Shown: positions 29,168 to 48,487 of the stretch, piece by piece | Position numbering within the stretch: position 1 is the stretch's first letter | How the letters are laid out: every line of letters starts with the position of its first letter | IMG/VR virus record: IMGVR_UViG_3300045988_052571 | Strand: one strand, 5' to 3' | DNA: 55,308 nt | Origin: a virus | Notes under the pieces: generated by a model | Told to the model about the DNA's origin: nothing | Databases searched by the model: none | The model's input: the letters and a program-made list of their open reading frames with translations, nothing else | Made by a program: the position numbers and the translations under genes

Positions 29168-29175
29168 TTCACCCC

Positions 29176-29236
29176 GGACACCTTGACGGGCCGCACCGTA
29201 AAGCGACCCGATCCCGCCACCCCGGCAACAGCCGGG
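29176..29236 (+). repeat. intergenic structured repeat, copy 1 (TTGAC subtype)
   Basis: GGACACCTTGACGGGCCGCACCGTAAAGCGACCC...CCCGGC-AACA-GCCGGG. Confidence 0.75.
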
Positions 29237-29275
29237 AGAAAGTCGAGCATCAACCACAGCACAGGAGGTTTTACA

Positions 29276-29623
29276 ATGCGCAAACTGAAAAAGATCATCA
29301 CCGCCGCGGCTCTGGCTGCCGCAATGCTGGCAGGTGCGCCCCGCACCGCTGCCGCCTGTCCCTACACCCCCGGCCCCCTGGGCCGCTACATTGTCCCCGC
29401 TCAAGTGCTGGGGATGTACGCCGACGGCGACGGCGTGCAAGTCTGGTGCACCGACCTGGGCGACGGTTGCGACTGGTTTTTTATCGTCGATGCAAAAACC
29501 GATCTGCGGATTTATGACCGGGTGCAACTCGTTGTAGAGGACAACGACACCCCGGACGACTACACCGACGACCGCGTTATTGACGCGCTTTACTGCCATG
29601 ACTGCGACGACGTGGACGACTAA
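29276..29623 (+). CDS. secreted/lipoprotein-like small protein
   Basis: 115 aa; signal-like MRKLKKIITAAALAAAMLAGAPRTAAAC; acidic Cys-containing C-terminus. Confidence 0.5.
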   Translation: MRKLKKIITAAALAAAMLAGAPRTAAACPYTPGPLGRYIVPAQVLGMYADGDGVQVWCTDLGDGCDWFFIVDAKTDLRIYDRVQLVVEDNDTPDDYTDDRVIDALYCHDCDDVDD

Positions 29624-29638
29624 CAGGAGGTGCAGGCA

Positions 29639-29800
29639 ATGCGTTACCAGATCGTTTATTGCAAGCGGGGTTTACCGCTCACCACCTGGGCCAACACCGC
29701 CGACCAGGCGCGCCAGTTGGCCGACCAACTCCGCCGCGTCGGTTATTCCGTGGACGTGTGGCAGCACACCTCCGACGGATCGCGGAAAACTGACCTTTGA
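29639..29800 (+). CDS. hypothetical 53-aa protein
   Basis: RBS AGGAGG; below the ORF-track size cut-off. Confidence 0.4.
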   Translation: MRYQIVYCKRGLPLTTWANTADQARQLADQLRRVGYSVDVWQHTSDGSRKTDL

Positions 29801-29810
29801 CCCCCCCGCC

Positions 29811-29871
29811 GGATGCTCTAGCAGGGTTGCACCGTAAAGCAGCCCCGCCCCATCTACCCGGCCCCGCCGGG
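29811..29871 (+). repeat. intergenic structured repeat, copy 2 (divergent, with compensatory changes)
   Basis: GGATGCTCTAGCAGGGTTGC-ACCGTAAA-GCAGCCC...CCCGGC-CCC-GCCGGG. Confidence 0.7.
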
Positions 29872-29906
29872 ATGAACCACAACTAAAACACAGGAGGTTT
29901 TACACT

Positions 29907-31118
29907 ATGACCAACGAAGAGATCATTTTGAAGAGCGTTCAAGCGCACTTGACCCCAGCCCAGCGGCACGAGATCGCCGCCGCGGCATACACCCCGGAGC
30001 AGATCGCCCACGCCGTCGAGCATATCCCGGACGGCCTCGACGCGCTGGCCGCCTCTCAAGTCCACACTTTTGCATGGTGGAAAGACAACGGCAAGAGCGT
30101 GAAGAGGGGAGAAAAAGCCCTTTTCACCTGCCCGCTGTGGAAGTACACCGACAAGCCAAGCAAAGCCCAGATCAAGGCGGCAGAGGCCGCAGGCAAAGAG
30201 GTACAGCCCGCGGCTCATTACTACCCCACCACGTCGTATATGTTCAGCCGCTTACAGGTTGAAAGCAGCAAGCCCGCCCCCGCCGGCCGCTTTAAGAGTA
30301 TCGACGAGATCAAGGCCTATAACAAGATGCTGGCAGAGCAGCGGCGCGCCGCGAGAGTATCCGCCGCCATCAAAACCGCCGCGGATGCAATCGCCCAGGA
30401 CGTTACAACAGAGGCGCGGCAGGCAGCACAGCAGGCAGCCGCCCGCGTTGTCGTGGCTGTGGAAGAACGCCACGAACTGCCCGAACTTGTAGAGGCTCCC
30501 AAGCCTGCCACGAAAAAGGCCCGCAACGTAACACCGCCGGACACCATCAAGATCACCCTGCACAACAACCCCCAGAACTACATAGAACTAAACCCCGGCT
30601 TTTTCCCCTGCGGCGTTGGCCAGTTTAAGCAGATTATGAAGTTGGTTCGAGAGGACACCGCCCACACCGACGAACTCACCGCCGCTATCATTGACATTTT
30701 GAAGCGCAAGGCAAGCACTTGCGGCCCGGATCAGGCCGCCGCACGGCGGAACCTTGTAGCCCTTGGCGAAATCAAGGAAGAAAAAAGCCCGGTAAAGGTC
30801 AGCAACAAACCGGAATTTTTTGAAACCCTCATGCGCAACGGAAGCGGAAATTTCCGCCGCCTGCGCTCTGGCTACCGTGCAGAGTATGCCGGGTTTACGT
30901 TTTTCTTCTCCAAGTGCAAGGATTTCAAACGCTGGGATATTTACGAATCCCGGTGCGGCCTGCTGGCTCTTCCCGCCGGAATGTGTGGCCGCACGAAAGC
31001 GGAATGTGCTTCTTGTCTCGTCAAATACTTTGACGTGGAAAAGGCAAAGACGCTCAACCTTGACAAGATGGAGCAGATCAAAAAGGCCGCTCCCCTGGAA
31101 GCAGCGGCCAGCATTTGA
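29907..31118 (+). CDS. early protein with an ArdC-N-like ssDNA-binding motif (weak)
   Basis: 403 aa; HTFAWWKDNGKSVKRGEKAL resembles the ArdC/DUF1738 W-x-T-x-xQ...V-KGEK motif. Confidence 0.35.
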   Translation: MTNEEIILKSVQAHLTPAQRHEIAAAAYTPEQIAHAVEHIPDGLDALAASQVHTFAWWKDNGKSVKRGEKALFTCPLWKYTDKPSKAQIKAAEAAGKEVQPAAHYYPTTSYMFSRLQVESSKPAPAGRFKSIDEIKAYNKMLAEQRRAARVSAAIKTAADAIAQDVTTEARQAAQQAAARVVVAVEERHELPELVEAPKPATKKARNVTPPDTIKITLHNNPQNYIELNPGFFPCGVGQFKQIMKLVREDTAHTDELTAAIIDILKRKASTCGPDQAAARRNLVALGEIKEEKSPVKVSNKPEFFETLMRNGSGNFRRLRSGYRAEYAGFTFFFSKCKDFKRWDIYESRCGLLALPAGMCGRTKAECASCLVKYFDVEKAKTLNLDKMEQIKKAAPLEAAASI

Positions 31119-31129
31119 ACCACAGCAGC

Positions 31130-31186
31130 GGACACCCCAGCAGGGCCGCACCGCACGAAAGCGGCCCCGCCCCAGCCCACACGGGC
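31130..31186 (+). repeat. intergenic structured repeat, copy 3 (CCAGCA subtype)
   Basis: GGACACCCCAGCAGGGCCGC-N11-GCGGCCCCGCCCC, then GCCC-ACAC-GGGC. Confidence 0.75.
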
Positions 31187-31214
31187 CACACGAAAACGAA
31201 AAGGAGCTGTTACA

Positions 31215-31424
31215 ATGATTCCCGAAAAAATCCGCCAGCGCCAGCGCGCAGAACTCGCCGCCATTCACCGCCTAGATGCCGCAGGCTACACGGTCGAGGG
31301 ATGGAACCACATCACCAGCCTTTGCACCGTCGCCCGCCTGGACGGCTTGAACACGAACCACGACAAGAGCAAATTTTGGAGCTTTCCGACGTGGCAGGCT
31401 GCCGCGGCCGCTCTACTCGATTGA
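31215..31424 (+). CDS. hypothetical early protein
   Basis: 69 aa; RBS AAGGAG. Confidence 0.45.
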   Translation: MIPEKIRQRQRAELAAIHRLDAAGYTVEGWNHITSLCTVARLDGLNTNHDKSKFWSFPTWQAAAAALLD

Positions 31425-31434
31425 TCCCAGCGCC

Positions 31435-31485
31435 GGACACCTTGACAGGCCGCACCGTAAAGCGACCCGATCCCAGCCGAAAGGC
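31435..31485 (+). repeat. intergenic structured repeat, copy 4 (TTGACA subtype)
   Basis: GGACACCTTGACAGGCCGCACCGTAAAGCGACCCGATCCCA, then GCC-GAAA-GGC. Confidence 0.75.
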
Positions 31486-31519
31486 ACAACACGAAACACA
31501 AATCAGGAGGTTTGAATTT

Positions 31520-32005
31520 ATGTCTTGTATGATGCTTTCGCCCGCTCACATTGCCACCGTTGCGCATGGTCTGGCGTATCTGCTCAATCAATCCGAAATG
31601 TGCCAGCTTTCCGCCGCTGGTGAGCTGTACGACGCTCTGAGTGACTGCAAATACCCGCACGATTTTCTTTATGACGACCGCAAAATTTACCCCGTTCTGT
31701 ATCGTCACAACGAATTAGCATACGAGGGCCGCTACAAAGTCGAGCCGGACGAAACCGACGAAGCGCCAGCCATGCCGGACAATGTTCCGCACCTGCTGCA
31801 CCACCTGAGCTACAACGAGCATTATTTTCTCGATGCTGATTTCTTCAAATTCTTAAAGCTGCTTGACTGCTTTATTTACCAGTGCGAAGAGCAGGCCACA
31901 GCTGACACGAATTTGCAGAAAGCCCTTGTAAAGACTTCTATCCGCCTTTACGCATTCGCCGCCCATCAGAATGCAGAATACAGCGCCGCGCCCTGGTGCA
32001 TCTGA
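31520..32005 (+). CDS. hypothetical early protein
   Basis: 161 aa; RBS AGGAGG. Confidence 0.5.
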   Translation: MSCMMLSPAHIATVAHGLAYLLNQSEMCQLSAAGELYDALSDCKYPHDFLYDDRKIYPVLYRHNELAYEGRYKVEPDETDEAPAMPDNVPHLLHHLSYNEHYFLDADFFKFLKLLDCFIYQCEEQATADTNLQKALVKTSIRLYAFAAHQNAEYSAAPWCI

Positions 32006-32014
32006 TCCCGCGTC

Positions 32015-32065
32015 GGACACCTTGACAGGCCGCACCGCAAAGCGACCCGATCCCAGCCGCAAGGC
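32015..32065 (+). repeat. intergenic structured repeat, copy 5 (TTGACA subtype)
   Basis: As copy 4, but hairpin 2 is GCC-GCAA-GGC. Confidence 0.75.
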
Positions 32066-32103
32066 ATAACGAACCACGAAAACGAAACGGAGGATTTTAT
32101 ATT

Positions 32104-33039
32104 ATGGCAACTTACACGATCAACGAGAACACCGCCCGCCTCTCTCACGAAATGCGCTCTTTCAGAGACTACCACGCAGGCAGCGCAACGGCGGAGTACG
32201 AGGCCCGGGTGGCCCAGGCCGCCGCCATCTTGGAGCAGGTCAAGGCCAAGTGCTTCACCGAAGAGCAGAAAGAGCGGGCCGAATACCTGTTCGACCGTTA
32301 CGCCAAGACGCTGGCAGAGGCCACCAACAAGGAGAACGAGATCGGCACGCGCTGCCCCAGCGTGATGATCTGCGGCGCTGGCAACTTCCCCGTGCGGAAG
32401 AAAGAGAAGCAGATCAAAGCATTTGAGGCCAACCGGGAGAACTGGCGCAAGGCTGAACACTATCTCGACCAGCTCAAGAGAGCGCACACCCTGGCCGTGA
32501 AAGACTCCGATCCCGAAGTGCTGGACTTCCTGCGGGCCAAGCTGGCAGGTCTGGAAGCCGGACACGAATTGATGATCTCCGCCAACGCATACTACCGCAA
32601 GCACAAGACACTGGACGGTTTCGAGGGTATCCCCGAAAAGACGCTTGCCTGGATCACGAAACCCGGCGTTTACATGGCAGGCGGGCGGAACGGCGACGGC
32701 TCCCCGCTGGCGTTCCACGGCAAGCCGTTCCCCACCTACGAACTGACGAGCAGCAAAGCCACCATCAAGCGGGTGCAAGCACGAATCGCAAAGATCGAGG
32801 CTGCCAAGGCTGCCGCCCCGGTGGAGGATGAACACGACGGTTACACCTACAAAGAGGATCAGGAGTCCATGCGGGTTCAGCTTATCTTCCCCGGCAAGCC
32901 CGACGACGAAACCCGCGACGTACTCAAGCACAACGGTTTTCACTGGTCGCCCCGCAACGGCGCATGGCAGCGGCAGTTAAACGACGCTGGCAAGTATGCC
33001 GCACACCGGGTCATGGAATTTCTGGACGGCAACGAATAA
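32104..33039 (+). CDS. early protein, possibly DUF3560-like
   Basis: 311 aa; C-terminal LKHNGFHWSPRNGAWQRQ resembles the DUF3560 GF-W-x(4)-W motif; the call is weak. Confidence 0.35.
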   Translation: MATYTINENTARLSHEMRSFRDYHAGSATAEYEARVAQAAAILEQVKAKCFTEEQKERAEYLFDRYAKTLAEATNKENEIGTRCPSVMICGAGNFPVRKKEKQIKAFEANRENWRKAEHYLDQLKRAHTLAVKDSDPEVLDFLRAKLAGLEAGHELMISANAYYRKHKTLDGFEGIPEKTLAWITKPGVYMAGGRNGDGSPLAFHGKPFPTYELTSSKATIKRVQARIAKIEAAKAAAPVEDEHDGYTYKEDQESMRVQLIFPGKPDDETRDVLKHNGFHWSPRNGAWQRQLNDAGKYAAHRVMEFLDGNE

Positions 33040-33049
33040 CGAAAACAAC

Positions 33050-33107
33050 GGACACCCCAGCAGGGCCGCACCGCACAAAAAGCGGCCCCGCCCCAGCCCG
33101 AAAGGGC
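33050..33107 (+). repeat. intergenic structured repeat, copy 6 (CCAGCA subtype)
   Basis: GGACACCCCAGCAGGGCCGC-ACCGCACAAAAA-GCGGCCCCGCCCC, then GCCC-GAAA-GGGC. Confidence 0.75.
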
Positions 33108-46404: not shown

Positions 46405-46700
46405 GTCTGTTGACCTGCCTTTCTTGCCATTTCCACGACCTGCTCTGCGGTCAGCCAGCCCTCAACGCCGTTATCGTCCCGGATGTTGCCCATCACTTCA
46501 AGCAAGCCCTGTTTGAATCCGTAGGAACCGTAACCGCAGATGGCATCCCAGCTGCCGCCAAAGTTCTTGTCGTTCACCGTGACCTGCCAGCCCCAGTCCT
46601 TGTCCGAAAAGTCCTTGTCCATCTCCGGGAAGCGGCGGTGCAAATCATGGTTGACGTGCAACTCCGTCAGCATTGCGTCGAGCTTTTCAATCTCCGTCAT
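46401..46700 (-). CDS. hypothetical protein
   Basis: 99 aa; GTGA overlap with the methyltransferase start. Confidence 0.5.
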   Translation of the reverse strand: MTEIEKLDAMLTELHVNHDLHRRFPEMDKDFSDKDWGWQVTVNDKNFGGSWDAICGYGSYGFKQGLLEVMGNIRDDNGVEGWLTAEQVVEMARKAGQQT

Positions 46701-46897
46701 GCCTCTTTCGCCTCCCAGTTCTCTACAATCCAGCGAATTGCGGCATGAAGTGCGCGCTTCGGGCAGGCTCTAACCGTTGCCATTTTTGCTACCAGCCGGA
46801 TTGCCGTGCGCACCTTTTCTCTTTCTGCCTCGGTAATTGGCGTAAAGCGATCATCTGCCATATCTTCCAGCAGTTCGATAGCCTCTGAATACAGCAC
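46697..46897 (-). CDS. hypothetical 66-aa protein
   Basis: GTG start 9 nt after RBS AAGGAGG; the longer TTG-initiated ORF (to 47137) is rejected. Confidence 0.45.
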   Translation of the reverse strand: MLYSEAIELLEDMADDRFTPITEAEREKVRTAIRLVAKMATVRACPKRALHAAIRWIVENWEAKEA

Positions 46898-46929
46898 GAA
46901 ATCAACCTCCTTTGTTTTATTTTTTCTTG

Positions 46930-47404
46930 TGTGGGCGGTTGGAGTCGAACCAACTTTTATCTCGGTGTTTTGGGGGAGATAAACGCCGCCGTCGCCGTCA
47001 GCCATAGGCGCGCCCACATATAAGACCGCCGCCTCCCTGGAGATAATCGTAAAGACGGAGAGGCGGCGGGCGGCCTTATCTGCCTTTAACCAGCAGGGGG
47101 AAAGGCCTGCCGCCTTTGGCTTGGGCGGGTAGGACAAGGCGCTTCTTCGCTTGTGCGGCGGCGCACCCTCTTTCGGCTTCCGTTGCCGTCATGCAGGGTA
47201 CGACTTGACTAGGAGCAGCATGGTTTTTCACCAGCTTTCGCGTTAGGAGGGACGCTGCCATACGGCACTCTTTCGCCCTGTTGGTACGCAAATGTTATGG
47301 AAAATCGCACCAGCTTCCATGATGCCTATACGCAACCGACGCAGGCGGGGTTTGGCCCCGCTTTCAGCGGATCAGCCGCGGCAACGGCTGATCCGCCCTG
47401 CGTC
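46930..47404 (-). ncRNA. large structured RNA candidate with a 3' tRNA-like module (GOLLD/ROOL-class by context; identity unverified)
   Basis: About 475 nt with no credible ORF; perfect 3-way junction at 47338-47404; multiple helices; 3' module with a 7-bp acceptor and T arm GTTGG-TTCGACT-CCAAC. Confidence 0.55.
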
Positions 47405-47406
47405 AC

Positions 47407-47443
47407 ATAAAAGGCCGCCGCACTGACGCTGGGTGTAGCGGCC
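47407..47443 (-). terminator. probable terminator after gene 47467..47940
   Basis: Minus strand: GGCCGC ... GCGGCC with an inner CAC/GTG pairing, followed by TTTTAT. Confidence 0.4.
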
Positions 47444-47466: not shown

Positions 47467-47940
47467 TTACTTATTCTTCGGTCGATAGTGCTTGCACTGT
47501 TTGTCGTAGCCGCCGCACGGCGCGCACCGCGGGATGGTTATTTTGAACGTATGCTCACACTGTACTTCTCTTGTTGCACCCTTTTGCGGGGCAGTCTTGG
47601 TGTATGCGCTTCTTGCCAAACGGTTCTCCTTTTTCGCTTTTTGGATGTAACTTGCGCGCCCCATCGGGGCCGGATGTTCTCGTTCGTCCTGCCAGATTTC
47701 CCAGCGTTCCGGCTTGTTATAATTTCTTGTCAGCCGCCGACACTGCCAGATGTACCGATAGTAGATTCCACCTTTACAAGCGTCCCAGGCTGCCAGTCCG
47801 GCAGTTGCTATATATGCAATCTCGGCTTCCGAAAGCCCGCAGTTCAAATCTTCCGGCAGGAGTGTAGCATCTCCCGTGATTCTTGTTCCATCCGGCAGAT
47901 ACACAACGTACCTTGCCGGGTTTGCATTACCGTTCATCAT
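47467..47940 (-). CDS. hypothetical protein
   Basis: 157 aa; Cys-containing basic C-terminus. Confidence 0.5.
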   Translation of the reverse strand: MMNGNANPARYVVYLPDGTRITGDATLLPEDLNCGLSEAEIAYIATAGLAAWDACKGGIYYRYIWQCRRLTRNYNKPERWEIWQDEREHPAPMGRASYIQKAKKENRLARSAYTKTAPQKGATREVQCEHTFKITIPRCAPCGGYDKQCKHYRPKNK

Positions 47941-48487
47941 AGTGGGTGGCGATCATGTCTGCGAAATGCAAGCAGAGAACTTCGGGATAGCGGTCATAGG
48001 CTGTTCCGAGTGTGTCCCAGCTTTCCCTGCCGCAGTACGCGCCCATGTGCCAGCGAACCGCAATGATTTCTTTCCCGGTCAGCTTGATAAACCGCTGTGC
48101 CATAATCACGCTCTCTTCACCATGACCCAGCAGGCCGCGATCCTCATAACCGTACTTGTGGAATGCAGTTTCGTGGTACTTGTTGACCTTGCAAATGTCG
48201 TGCAGGAGTGCCGCCACCAGCACGGCGTTCTTGTCGCAGTCCTTAAAGGCGTGGTTGGTTTCGCACAGTTCCATTGCCGCATCCGCAACATTGACGGTGT
48301 GGGTTGCCAGGCCGCCGAAACGGTTTGAGTGGTGCTTAATGCTTGCCGGGAGATCAAAGAACCCCCGCTTCTCTAAGTCGTAGAGCAGTGCATCCGCACC
48401 GGGCCGTTTGTGAAGTCCTGCTTTCAGCCACAGTGCTTCAAACTTTTCCCGCGGCTCCATGTCCTCATACAGCTTTTCGTTTGCCAT
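47927..48487 (-). CDS. HD-domain phosphohydrolase
   Basis: 186 aa; HHSNRFGGLATHTVNV and LVAALLHDICK (HD motif). Confidence 0.7.
   Translation of the reverse strand: MANEKLYEDMEPREKFEALWLKAGLHKRPGADALLYDLEKRGFFDLPASIKHHSNRFGGLATHTVNVADAAMELCETNHAFKDCDKNAVLVAALLHDICKVNKYHETAFHKYGYEDRGLLGHGEESVIMAQRFIKLTGKEIIAVRWHMGAYCGRESWDTLGTAYDRYPEVLCLHFADMIATHYDER

Follow-up and report, generated by a model that had tools for sequence, protein, structure and literature searches.

The viral record IMGVR_UViG_3300045988_052571, whose 55,308 nucleotides (nt) constitute the window analysed here, contains a gap between two genes at positions 46930-47404, which raises the question whether this region, free of annotated function, encodes an RNA, to what family such an RNA would belong and what it might do for the phage. 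For this gap, the initial annotation had proposed a structured RNA devoid of open reading frames (ORFs) and ending in a module that resembles transfer RNA (tRNA). We find that positions 46925-47412 of the minus strand encode a real, conserved structured non-coding RNA that constitutes a new family, and the proposal is thus borne out by homologues, by covariation and by the lack of a conserved reading frame. Carriers of this RNA are temperate Toutatis-like phages of Faecalibacterium. Throughout the text, coordinates refer to window positions (1-based) and a position p of the RNA, which lies on the minus strand, corresponds to window position 47413-p.

Homologues were collected by scanning IMG/VR, metagenomes and GTDB genomes for sequence patterns, with an nhmmer profile employed as filter, which yielded well over 150 loci, and the complete set comprises 168 distinct full-length sequences of 375-490 nt. 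These originate solely from phage or prophage DNA of Faecalibacterium (FP_Toutatis, Lelie, IMG/VR and human-gut metagenomes), with the matches in GTDB genomes belonging to Faecalibacterium intestinale and to an uncultured Faecalibacterium. When 50,697 phage records were searched with blastn, matches were confined to FP_Toutatis, Lelie and one unverified faecal scaffold, and their genomic context is syntenic. A more divergent clade was gained by searching with the protein encoded upstream of the RNA, and the homologues group into about 10 lineages with mutual identities of 57-90%. Two of the phages with the RNA, FP_Toutatis and Lelie, are cultured or inducible, and the GenBank records of both leave the gap unannotated. 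In a full-text literature search for structured or tRNA-like RNAs of Faecalibacterium or Toutatis, we found the RNA described nowhere.

Evidence for a selected fold is found in the pattern of substitutions. Already the 486-nt stretch of the window folds with a minimum free energy of -209 kcal/mol (z = -4.5), which is matched by 0 of 100 shuffled sequences. We then compared 29 representatives, including those of the divergent clade, using a model limited to alignable helices and controls in which the pairing partners were slid. In this set, 95.6% of cells pair, compared to 38-44% in the slid controls, 33 pairs show double, compensatory changes (4-9 in controls) and the covariation score amounts to 0.30 (0.06-0.08 in controls), values that are reached by 0 of 500 shuffles. 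With the full model applied to 23 sequences, 88.6% of cells pair versus 36-45% upon sliding, and 42 pairs are changed on both sides versus 12-16. The frequent G-U pairs, which would turn into C-A on the opposite strand, identify the minus strand as the transcribed one. The covariation check on collected homologues that the initial annotation had called for has thus revealed abundant covariation and no conserved frame.

The search for known families, suggested in the same place, returned no match to models of GOLLD, ROOL, transfer-messenger RNA (tmRNA), introns or tRNA. At the gathering score, Rfam 15 detects nothing at the element and only copies of RAGATH-5 elsewhere in the window. Within the local 900 nt, the sole relevant line at E<=10 is tRNA-Sec (RF01852) with 20 bits compared to a gathering score of 47 (E 0.38), an identity that was rejected in view of this low score and of the lack of a UCA anticodon loop, other hits being due to chance, and nothing was found at the element in seven other lineages at E<=1. 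The tRNA model RF00005 does not match locally at E<=10 or in the seven lineages at E<=1, the GOLLD and ROOL models give no match at the gathering score, none to the region at E<=10 and none to the seven lineages at E<=1, and the Rfam models of tmRNA and introns do not match at the element. With ARAGORN, neither the window nor the element in any of about 75 related loci yields a tRNA or tmRNA, and the program called only the host genes ssrA (loci L278, L319 and L329) and tRNA-Pro, both kilobases away. Compared to a genuine tRNA, the 3' domain displays a 7-base-pair (bp) acceptor on a 5-bp T stem, the T-loop motif and the GG of the D-loop, and it lacks the 5-bp anticodon stem with a 7-nt loop. 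The attributes of tmRNA, namely a tRNA-like domain formed by the ends of the molecule, a G3:U70 pair, a tag ORF and a call by ARAGORN or Rfam, are all absent. It is the combination of a conserved, covarying structure with the lack of any match in Rfam or by ARAGORN that leads us to define a new family.

The gap contains no credible ORF, as had been noted from the window. Every forward frame is interrupted by 1-7 stop codons in all 29 representatives, and a length divisible by three is found for just 22% of indel runs. The ORFs that can be delineated start with TTG or GTG and overlap mutually, among them TTG ORFs at 46697-47137 (146 amino acids, aa) and 47076-47291 (71 aa), and small ORFs that begin with the AUG contained in UAUAUG were discarded since they are not conserved. 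In public gene calls of two loci (L478, 3924-4244; L479, 925-1245), the 66-aa ORF downstream of the RNA is lengthened to 106 aa with a start inside the tRNA-like domain, and public protein sets thus hold sequences whose extended N-terminus is spurious and derives from translation of the RNA.

The architecture of the element, including its immediate neighbours, is listed below from 5' to 3', with double changes referring to base pairs altered on both sides.

47467-47940, minus strand: upstream gene of 157 aa, whose C-terminal ~35 aa carry a zinc-knuckle-like motif, QCxHTFxIT-x3-CAPCxGY-x3-C-x2-Y.
47413-47443, minus strand: P0, a terminator-like GC-rich hairpin of 11 positions with one mismatch and a 9-nt loop, following the stop codon of the upstream gene.
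47405-47412, minus strand: U-rich leader, UUUUAUGU (UUUUAUAU in most lineages), abutting G+1 of P1.
47338-47404, minus strand: 5' three-way junction composed of P1, P1a and P1b.
47398-47404 with 47338-47344 (RNA 9-15/69-75), minus strand: P1, GACGCAG(G)/(C)CUGCGUC, double changes at 5 of 7 pairs, 99.5% of cells paired.
47385-47396 with 47367-47378 (RNA 17-28/35-46), minus strand: P1a, a 12-bp hairpin, double changes at 9 of 12 pairs.
47356-47361 with 47345-47350 (RNA 52-57/63-68), minus strand: P1b, with a 5-nt loop, 99.4% paired.
47318-47322 (RNA 91-95), minus strand: 5' strand of pseudoknot PKa, UCAUG, with its partner at 47189-47193.
47282-47312 (RNA 101-107/125-131), minus strand: P2 hairpin, UGGUGCG/CGUACCA, with covarying basal pairs.
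47213-47270 (RNA 143-200), minus strand: optional P3 domain with a GCAGC/GCUGC helix, a UGGU/ACCA hairpin and an unpaired CCCUCC at 47246-47251.
47162-47202 (RNA 211-217/245-251), minus strand: P4, CGUACCC/GGGUGCG, enclosing the 3' strand of PKa and P4a, double changes at 4 of 7 pairs, 98% paired.
47185-47188 with 47174-47177 (RNA 225-228/236-239), minus strand: P4a hairpin, double changes at 3 of 4 pairs.
47139-47156 (RNA 257-260/271-274), minus strand: P5 hairpin with an invariant or nearly invariant 10-nt loop (A/U)RGCGNAGAA, double changes at 3 of 4 pairs, 99% of cells paired.
47110-47138, minus strand: H-type pseudoknot formed by PKb and P6, with an A-rich third loop (CCAAA).
47124-47128 with 47110-47114 (RNA 285-289/299-303), minus strand: P6, double changes at 4 of 5 pairs.
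47072-47107 (RNA 306-311/336-341), minus strand: P7, a variable hairpin, 3 of 4 basal pairs double-changed, 97% paired.
47026-47069 (RNA 344-353/378-387), minus strand: P8, a GC-rich variable hairpin, CCGCCGCCUC/GAGGCGGCGG, found in all lineages with varying length.
47018-47025, minus strand: linker UCUUAUAU, the second junction of hairpin and UAUAU·G (the dot marks the junction), preceding the tRNA-like domain.
46930-47017, minus strand: tRNA-like domain of 88 nt with an acceptor, a D-like region with GG, a long arm, a T arm and discriminator A46930.
47011-47017 with 46931-46937 (RNA 396-402/476-482), minus strand: covarying acceptor of 7 bp, GUGGGCG/CGCCCAC.
46950-46954 with 46938-46942 (RNA 459-463/471-475), minus strand: T arm with the loop UUCGACU.
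46925-46929, minus strand: 3' tail CAAGA (CAAAA in a minority).
46697-46897, minus strand: downstream gene of 66 aa with a strong ribosome binding site (RBS) and a GTG start, located outside the element and differing between lineages.

The fold is modular, in that a universal core (P4-P8) with two covarying pseudoknots is combined with a three-way junction at the 5' end and with peripheral domains that are optional. The first pseudoknot, PKa, is a long-range interaction in which UCAUG (RNA 91-95) pairs with CAUGA (RNA 220-224) inside the internal loop of P4. At its outer pair, 115 sequences have U-A and 52 have C-G, a change that converts UCAUG/CAUGA to CCAUG/CAUGG with 0 mismatches in 167, and the helix is 100% paired in the alignment of the 29 representatives. 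Since both strands are built on the palindrome CAUG, covariation is equally compatible with pairing within one molecule and between molecules. In the second pseudoknot, PKb, CUUG (47135-47138, RNA 275-278) pairs with CAAG (47120-47123, RNA 290-293) in the loop of P6, which is found as CUUG/CAAG in 110 sequences, as CCUG/CAGG in 41 and as UCUG/CAGG in 7, with the alignment pair 296:312 being U-A in 20 and C-G in 9 of the representatives. An alternative pairing of CUUGU with the ACAAG of the 3' tail, proposed by RNAalifold, is broken in 9 of 29 cells at the very pair that covaries in PKb, and it was rejected because the partner in the P6 loop becomes CAGG when J5/6 becomes CCUG, whereas the tail stays CAAG.

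Besides the core P4-P8 with both pseudoknots, the universal part of the RNA comprises the tRNA-like domain and the CAAGA tail, with the highest sequence conservation in the stretch GAGCGNAGAA..GCCUUGUCC..CCCAAGCCAAAGG. Several loops are invariant and have no internal pairing partner. The three-way junction, which had initially been described with an 8-bp P1, a 12-bp hairpin and a 5-bp hairpin, is found to be conserved with a second hairpin of 5-6 bp, as is the 10-bp helix at 47026-47069 that corresponds to P8, where just 68-74% of cells are paired because the MAFFT alignment is poor in this region. Two further elements read from the window are present there but do not extend to the family: the 6-bp hairpin at 47297-47320 (AUGGAA/UUCCAU), which shows zero covariation, is missing or disrupted in many lineages and shares positions with the covarying PKa and P2, was dropped as conserved element, and the two CGAAAGAG motifs are, according to the alignments, specific to the lineage of the window. 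The basal pairs of P2 are C-G in 15, U-A in 9 and U-G in 5 representatives (100% paired), with only 4 bp remaining in the L059 clade. The helices of P3 are 92-96% paired, the internal fold of this domain being ambiguous due to overlapping alternative helices. At its junction, the domain exposes an unpaired motif resembling an anti-Shine-Dalgarno sequence, with CUCC in 126 of the 126 sequences bearing P3, CCUCC in 86 and CCUCCUUUC in 52, the latter of which corresponds to the typical 3' terminus of 16S rRNA in bacteria.

Lineages differ in their periphery. In the L059 clade (375 nt), P3 is missing along with the greater part of P2, in the L203 lineage the 5' junction is swapped for a different sequence, L290 is a recombinant of two types and L018 has lost the tRNA-like end. 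In L018 (5100-5715, equivalent to L403), L410 and L429, detection is limited to the 5' part of the RNA, and the tRNA-like end is replaced or lost. These variants may be decaying copies, or they may reflect domains that function separately.

The tRNA-like domain closely follows its initial description (acceptor GUGGGCG/CGCCCAC, D-like CGCC-N10-GGCG, T arm GUUGG-UUCGACU-CCAAC, discriminator A), and its helices are conserved by compensation. When the -1:73 pair is counted, the acceptor shows double changes at 5 of 8 pairs with 99.6% of cells paired, and the T arm at 3 of 5 pairs with 96.6% paired. The near invariance of GGUUCGA and of the GG in the D-region suggests that the elbow of a tRNA, formed by T-loop and D-loop, is probably preserved. 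The anticodon arm is replaced, as had been recognized, by a stem with a 12-nt loop, although this stem contains 8 bp (UUUAUCUC/GAGAUAAA) instead of the 6 bp originally assigned. Across lineages, the substitute is a stem of 5-8 bp topped either by a loop of 12-17 nt or by an internal loop and a 3-5-bp mini-stem with a (U/C)CCCC pentaloop, and a run of at least three C is found in the apical loop in 159 of 168 sequences. This loop (46964-46975) reads (A)UCCCCCAU in most lineages, and its C-run complements the AUGGGGU that forms the anticodon loop of the tRNA-Pro(GGG) of the host in L361. A search by eye found no conserved internal partner for the CCUCC motif or the C-rich loop, and no conserved G-rich one for its C-run. 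The domain does not encode CCA, which the two host genes examined (ssrA and tRNA-Pro) do, its pair 3:70 is G-C and not G3:U70, and the discriminator varies between A and G among lineages. Judged from these features, the domain is a mimic of tRNA shape, and neither a decoding nor an obviously chargeable tRNA. The tail that follows it conforms to (A/G)CAAG in 144 of 158 scored sequences and does not covary with CUUG. CAAGA is kept in nearly all lineages, in contrast to the sequence beyond it, and the CAA at 74-76 is one base away from CCA.

The RNA is tightly linked to the gene preceding it. In all lineages, the zinc-ribbon motif is encoded upstream on the same strand, either as a protein of 57-58 aa or as C-terminus of proteins of 95-176 aa, and 80 of 80 loci retrieved with the protein only carry the RNA, in 76 cases at full length, with a start 50-90 nt past the stop codon. 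The protein family has at least 261 members without annotation or Pfam domain, and single clusters of the linked gene contain hundreds to thousands of metagenomic members. Searches of Pfam, PHROGs, NCBIfam and PDB sequences gave no match for the zinc-ribbon protein, and an assignment to PtuB by PADLOC was dismissed, as its 15 bits are near noise. Based on its linkage, the protein is likely the partner of the RNA. In the window, its start is overlapped by the gene of an HD-domain phosphohydrolase (47927-48487, minus strand) with a weak YhaM/Cas3-HD-like match. This gene, labelled as 3'-5' exoribonuclease in Toutatis, occurs in the lineages of the window, Toutatis and L006, though not in every lineage.

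On the downstream side, the neighbourhood is variable. The next gene, depending on the lineage, is an ORF of 66, 59, 107 or 45 aa or a C5 DNA methyltransferase, which is usually located 0-3 genes downstream. In a scan for promoters and terminators, no terminator was found between the RNA and the next RBS and no promoter was recognizable in the stretch from the upstream gene to the RNA, with the only promoter-like site being dismissed because it overlaps the start codon of the upstream gene. The ends of contigs proved uninformative as transcript boundaries.

The reading we favour, which could equally well turn out wrong, describes a stable trans-acting RNA or ribonucleoprotein (RNP) that is excised, at UAUAU·G junctions of the tRNA type, from the transcript of an early operon. 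The RNA would be transcribed together with the zinc-ribbon gene, as is probable because no separate promoter was seen and no terminator follows the RNA. Enzymes of host tRNA maturation would then free it, with ribonuclease P (RNase P) cutting at one or both of the junctions between a hairpin and UAUAU·G, which precede P1 and the tRNA-like domain, and the GC hairpins P0 and P8 would shield the new 3' ends. This would leave a stable core RNA that may or may not retain the tRNA-like piece and that functions in trans, probably bound by the zinc-ribbon protein, while the tRNA-shaped domain with its C-rich apical loop would dock onto, or serve as decoy for, a host component that recognizes the shape of a tRNA.

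The proposed excision draws on the similarity of the two junctions. A GC hairpin followed by a U-rich sequence ending in UAUAU·G lies in front of P1 as well as of the tRNA-like domain, with a hairpin of differing sequence occupying the P0 site in every lineage (in L203 without U-tract). The phage junctions read UUUUAU(A/G)U·G before P1, the consensus of 168 sequences, and UCU(U/G)AUAU·G before the tRNA-like domain, where U-A-U at -3 to -1 is invariant in most lineages, and they are matched by the host junctions hairpin-UUUAUAU·GGGGGCG (smpB-ssrA, L278) and AAAUAU·C (tRNA-Pro, L361). An A at -4 and a U at -1 are leader positions favoured by the Bacillus-type RNase P of Firmicutes. It is this likeness, together with the preferences of the enzyme, that led us to propose cleavage by RNase P, and as far as can be judged from its sequence, the UAUAU·G context is compatible with such a substrate.

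Several observations weigh against this proposal. The hairpin and U-tract directly upstream of the RNA resemble an efficient terminator, and either read-through or an unseen promoter would be needed for its synthesis. The 5' junction, formed by P1 and P1b, does not contain a T-loop, which makes recognition by RNase P at P1 uncertain, and the comparison of leaders is based on just two host genes. The conserved CAAGA tail finds no explanation in the scheme. Since an AlphaFold2 model of the zinc-ribbon protein calculated from 39 sequences is unusable (with a predicted local distance difference test score, pLDDT, of 45), it is the genomic linkage by which RNA binding is suggested. Finally, in most lineages the distance from the end of the RNA to the next RBS is 15-40 nt and contains no terminator, a feature that is equally well accounted for by a leader acting in cis.

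Such a cis-acting leader or operon punctuation, in which the RNA stays within the mRNA or is cleaved to shape it and thereby governs stability and translation of the downstream genes, appears possible but distinctly less probable, and it is to be taken seriously because the RNA abuts the next RBS. In this case, the tRNA-shaped domain could serve as 5' cap against RNase J, the hairpins could guard upstream fragments and CCUCC could mask a Shine-Dalgarno sequence. Besides the terminator-like hairpin before the RNA and the terminator-free transition to the next gene, this assignment would accommodate the unpaired CUCC/CCUCC found in all P3-bearing sequences and the methyltransferase gene that usually follows. 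However, the P3 domain bearing CCUCC is missing from a whole clade, and a 300-nt core with two pseudoknots and invariant loops by far exceeds what the protection of mRNA ends requires. Moreover, it is the upstream zinc-ribbon gene that is constant, whereas the gene immediately downstream varies, and this strict upstream linkage combined with downstream variability is the reason for which we favour the trans-acting RNA over the leader.

Two more far-reaching readings can be envisaged. It is rather unlikely that the RNA and the zinc-ribbon protein form an RNP that hijacks the translation or tRNA machinery of the host, or else a cage of the ROOL or GOLLD type with a covalently attached tRNA mimic. 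In the former case, the tRNA-shaped domain would enter a tRNA-binding site, either of the ribosome, of RNase P or of a tRNA-targeting defence nuclease, and its CCCC(C) loop, directed at the anticodon loop of tRNA-Pro(GGG), and the CCUCCUUUC mimic of most lineages would engage tRNA or mRNA. Quite improbable in our view is a strict analogue of ROOL and GOLLD, an RNA-only homo-oligomer organized as cage or ring that displays or encloses the attached tRNA-like domain and whose linkage to a protein would be incidental or regulatory. For such an oligomer, the palindromic CAUG on both strands of PKa would offer the possibility of pairing between molecules, and the invariant loops without internal partner could be counted in its favour. 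Yet there is no match in sequence or structure to the models of either family, the linkage to a protein gene is strict here whereas ROOL and GOLLD are not known to have a strictly linked protein gene, and the 375-490 nt of the RNA are below the ~580 nt of ROOL. They are far below the size of GOLLD, of which many members exceed 800 nt (PMC12286853). ROOL and GOLLD both form nanocages and GOLLD sometimes carries tRNAs in a linker (PMC12286853), and the two share with the RNA described here that they are phage-encoded, large, multi-pseudoknotted and tRNA-associated.

Prophages with the RNA reside near tRNA-like host genes. In L278 (11715-12160, minus strand), and also in L319 and L329, the host gene smpB is followed by a hairpin, the sequence UUUAUAU and ssrA (tag DNNNYQLLAA). 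Prophages of the window type are found 7.2-8.6 kb from host ssrA, and those of the Toutatis, L059 and L361 types 3.8-6.3 kb from an identical tRNA-Pro(GGG) gene. In a hand count of 32 acceptor and T-arm positions, the tRNA-like domain of the window type (46930-47017) shares 25 with the tmRNA encoded by the ssrA of L278 and 19 with tRNA-Pro, that of the Toutatis type (L276/L312) shares 23 with tRNA-Pro, including CGGGUGUAGC, and 18 with tmRNA, and that of the L059 type, without preference, shares 20 with each. The notion that the domain is a copy of the host gene adjacent to the prophage thus holds weakly for two lineages and fails for the third, and the resemblance could reflect ancient capture or chance.

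From this proximity and resemblance, the element might be regarded as a decayed host tRNA or tmRNA captured by the phage and lying beside non-functional spacer DNA, or as remnant of an attachment site. We give this possibility hardly any credence, as it is effectively refuted by the compensatory changes that keep acceptor and T stems paired and thus indicate selection on the RNA. Besides the absence of a preference in the L059 type, the 390 nt upstream of the domain are also conserved and covarying, and the element is located kilobases from the ends of the prophages. Lelie uses a phiC31-type serine integrase with intergenic integration sites (PMC11792537). The idea that the region codes for a protein, for which the TTG ORFs of 146 and 71 aa and the extension of a public ORF call by ~120 nt into the tRNA-like domain could be invoked, deserves next to no belief in light of the stop codons and indel lengths described above, of substitutions that keep base pairs and not codons and of a clade from which a whole 100-nt block is missing.

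Elsewhere in the window, six matches to RAGATH-5 (RF02685) are located between plus-strand ORFs (29174-33102, plus strand). Four of them score above the gathering threshold (29174-29223, 29809-29859, 31128-31181 and 32013-32062) and two just below (31433-31482 and 33048-33102), and they flank the ORFs 29907-31118 and 32104-33039. Transcription of this block runs in the direction opposite to that of the remaining phage genes, and the AT skew flips at 28-34 kb.

Large structured RNAs of bacteria and phages with extensive covariation are rare, the usual list consisting of OLE, GOLLD, ROOL, HEARO and raiA, each of which has opened structural and functional work. The undescribed RNA reported here contains two covarying pseudoknots and a fused mimic of tRNA, and its strictly linked gene encodes a candidate protein partner. 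No such partner is known for ROOL and GOLLD, and the protein thus provides an experimental handle. Its host Faecalibacterium is a dominant, health-associated commensal of the gut, and if the hijacking RNP or the cage were to prove true, the RNA would represent a new functional class of viral RNA in a highly abundant human gut bacterium. In current annotations, the gap is either empty or the downstream ORF runs into the tRNA-like domain. With FP_Toutatis and Lelie, of which the latter is spontaneously induced (PMC11792537), genetics, mapping of transcript ends and cryo-EM become feasible.

In comparison to known systems, the element shares with ROOL and GOLLD its origin in phages, a length of hundreds of nt, many covarying helices with pseudoknots and the association with tRNA. 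It differs from both in that it matches no Rfam model, is shorter than either, is confined to one phage group of a single host genus, contains its tRNA part as fused non-decoding mimic instead of a neighbouring tRNA gene and is strictly coupled to a zinc-ribbon gene. A second parallel concerns tmRNA and SmpB, where a tRNA-like domain without anticodon arm is equally combined with pseudoknots, the RNA gene directly follows that of its partner (a putative one in the phage) and the host smpB-ssrA junction, with hairpin, UUUAUAU and G+1, resembles those of the phage RNA. Unlike in tmRNA, the tRNA-like domain is contiguous and located at the 3' end, G3:U70, CCA and a tag frame are missing, and the upstream protein is not SmpB.

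Other relatives in kind concern the use of tRNA shape within longer transcripts. In the c4 RNA of phages P1 and P7, the CI RNA of P4 and the MALAT1/MEN-beta-mascRNA system, an embedded tRNA-shaped element sets the ends of a stable RNA via RNase P or RNase Z, a role that in our case is a proposal. The c4 and CI RNAs are antisense regulators of ~80 nt from proteobacterial phages and MALAT1 is eukaryotic, and none of them contains a 300-nt pseudoknotted core. Pseudoknots followed by a 3' tRNA mimic without normal anticodon arm are also found in the tRNA-like structures of TYMV, TMV and BMV. These form the ends of RNA virus genomes, terminate in CCA and are aminoacylated, whereas the mimic described here is internal to the transcript of a DNA phage and carries no CCA and a discriminator A or G. 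YrlA, a bacterial Y-RNA-like molecule that is sometimes phage-borne, contains a tRNA-like module bound by Ro60 and is encoded next to the gene of this partner. With its mimicry of T-arm, D-arm and acceptor in a non-coding RNA beside a protein gene, it parallels the present element, which in turn does not match it in Rfam, is much larger and pseudoknotted and has no rsr (Ro) gene among its annotated neighbours. The RNA is thus a member of none of the known families, and in kind it most resembles ROOL and GOLLD on one hand and tRNA-like processing modules on the other.

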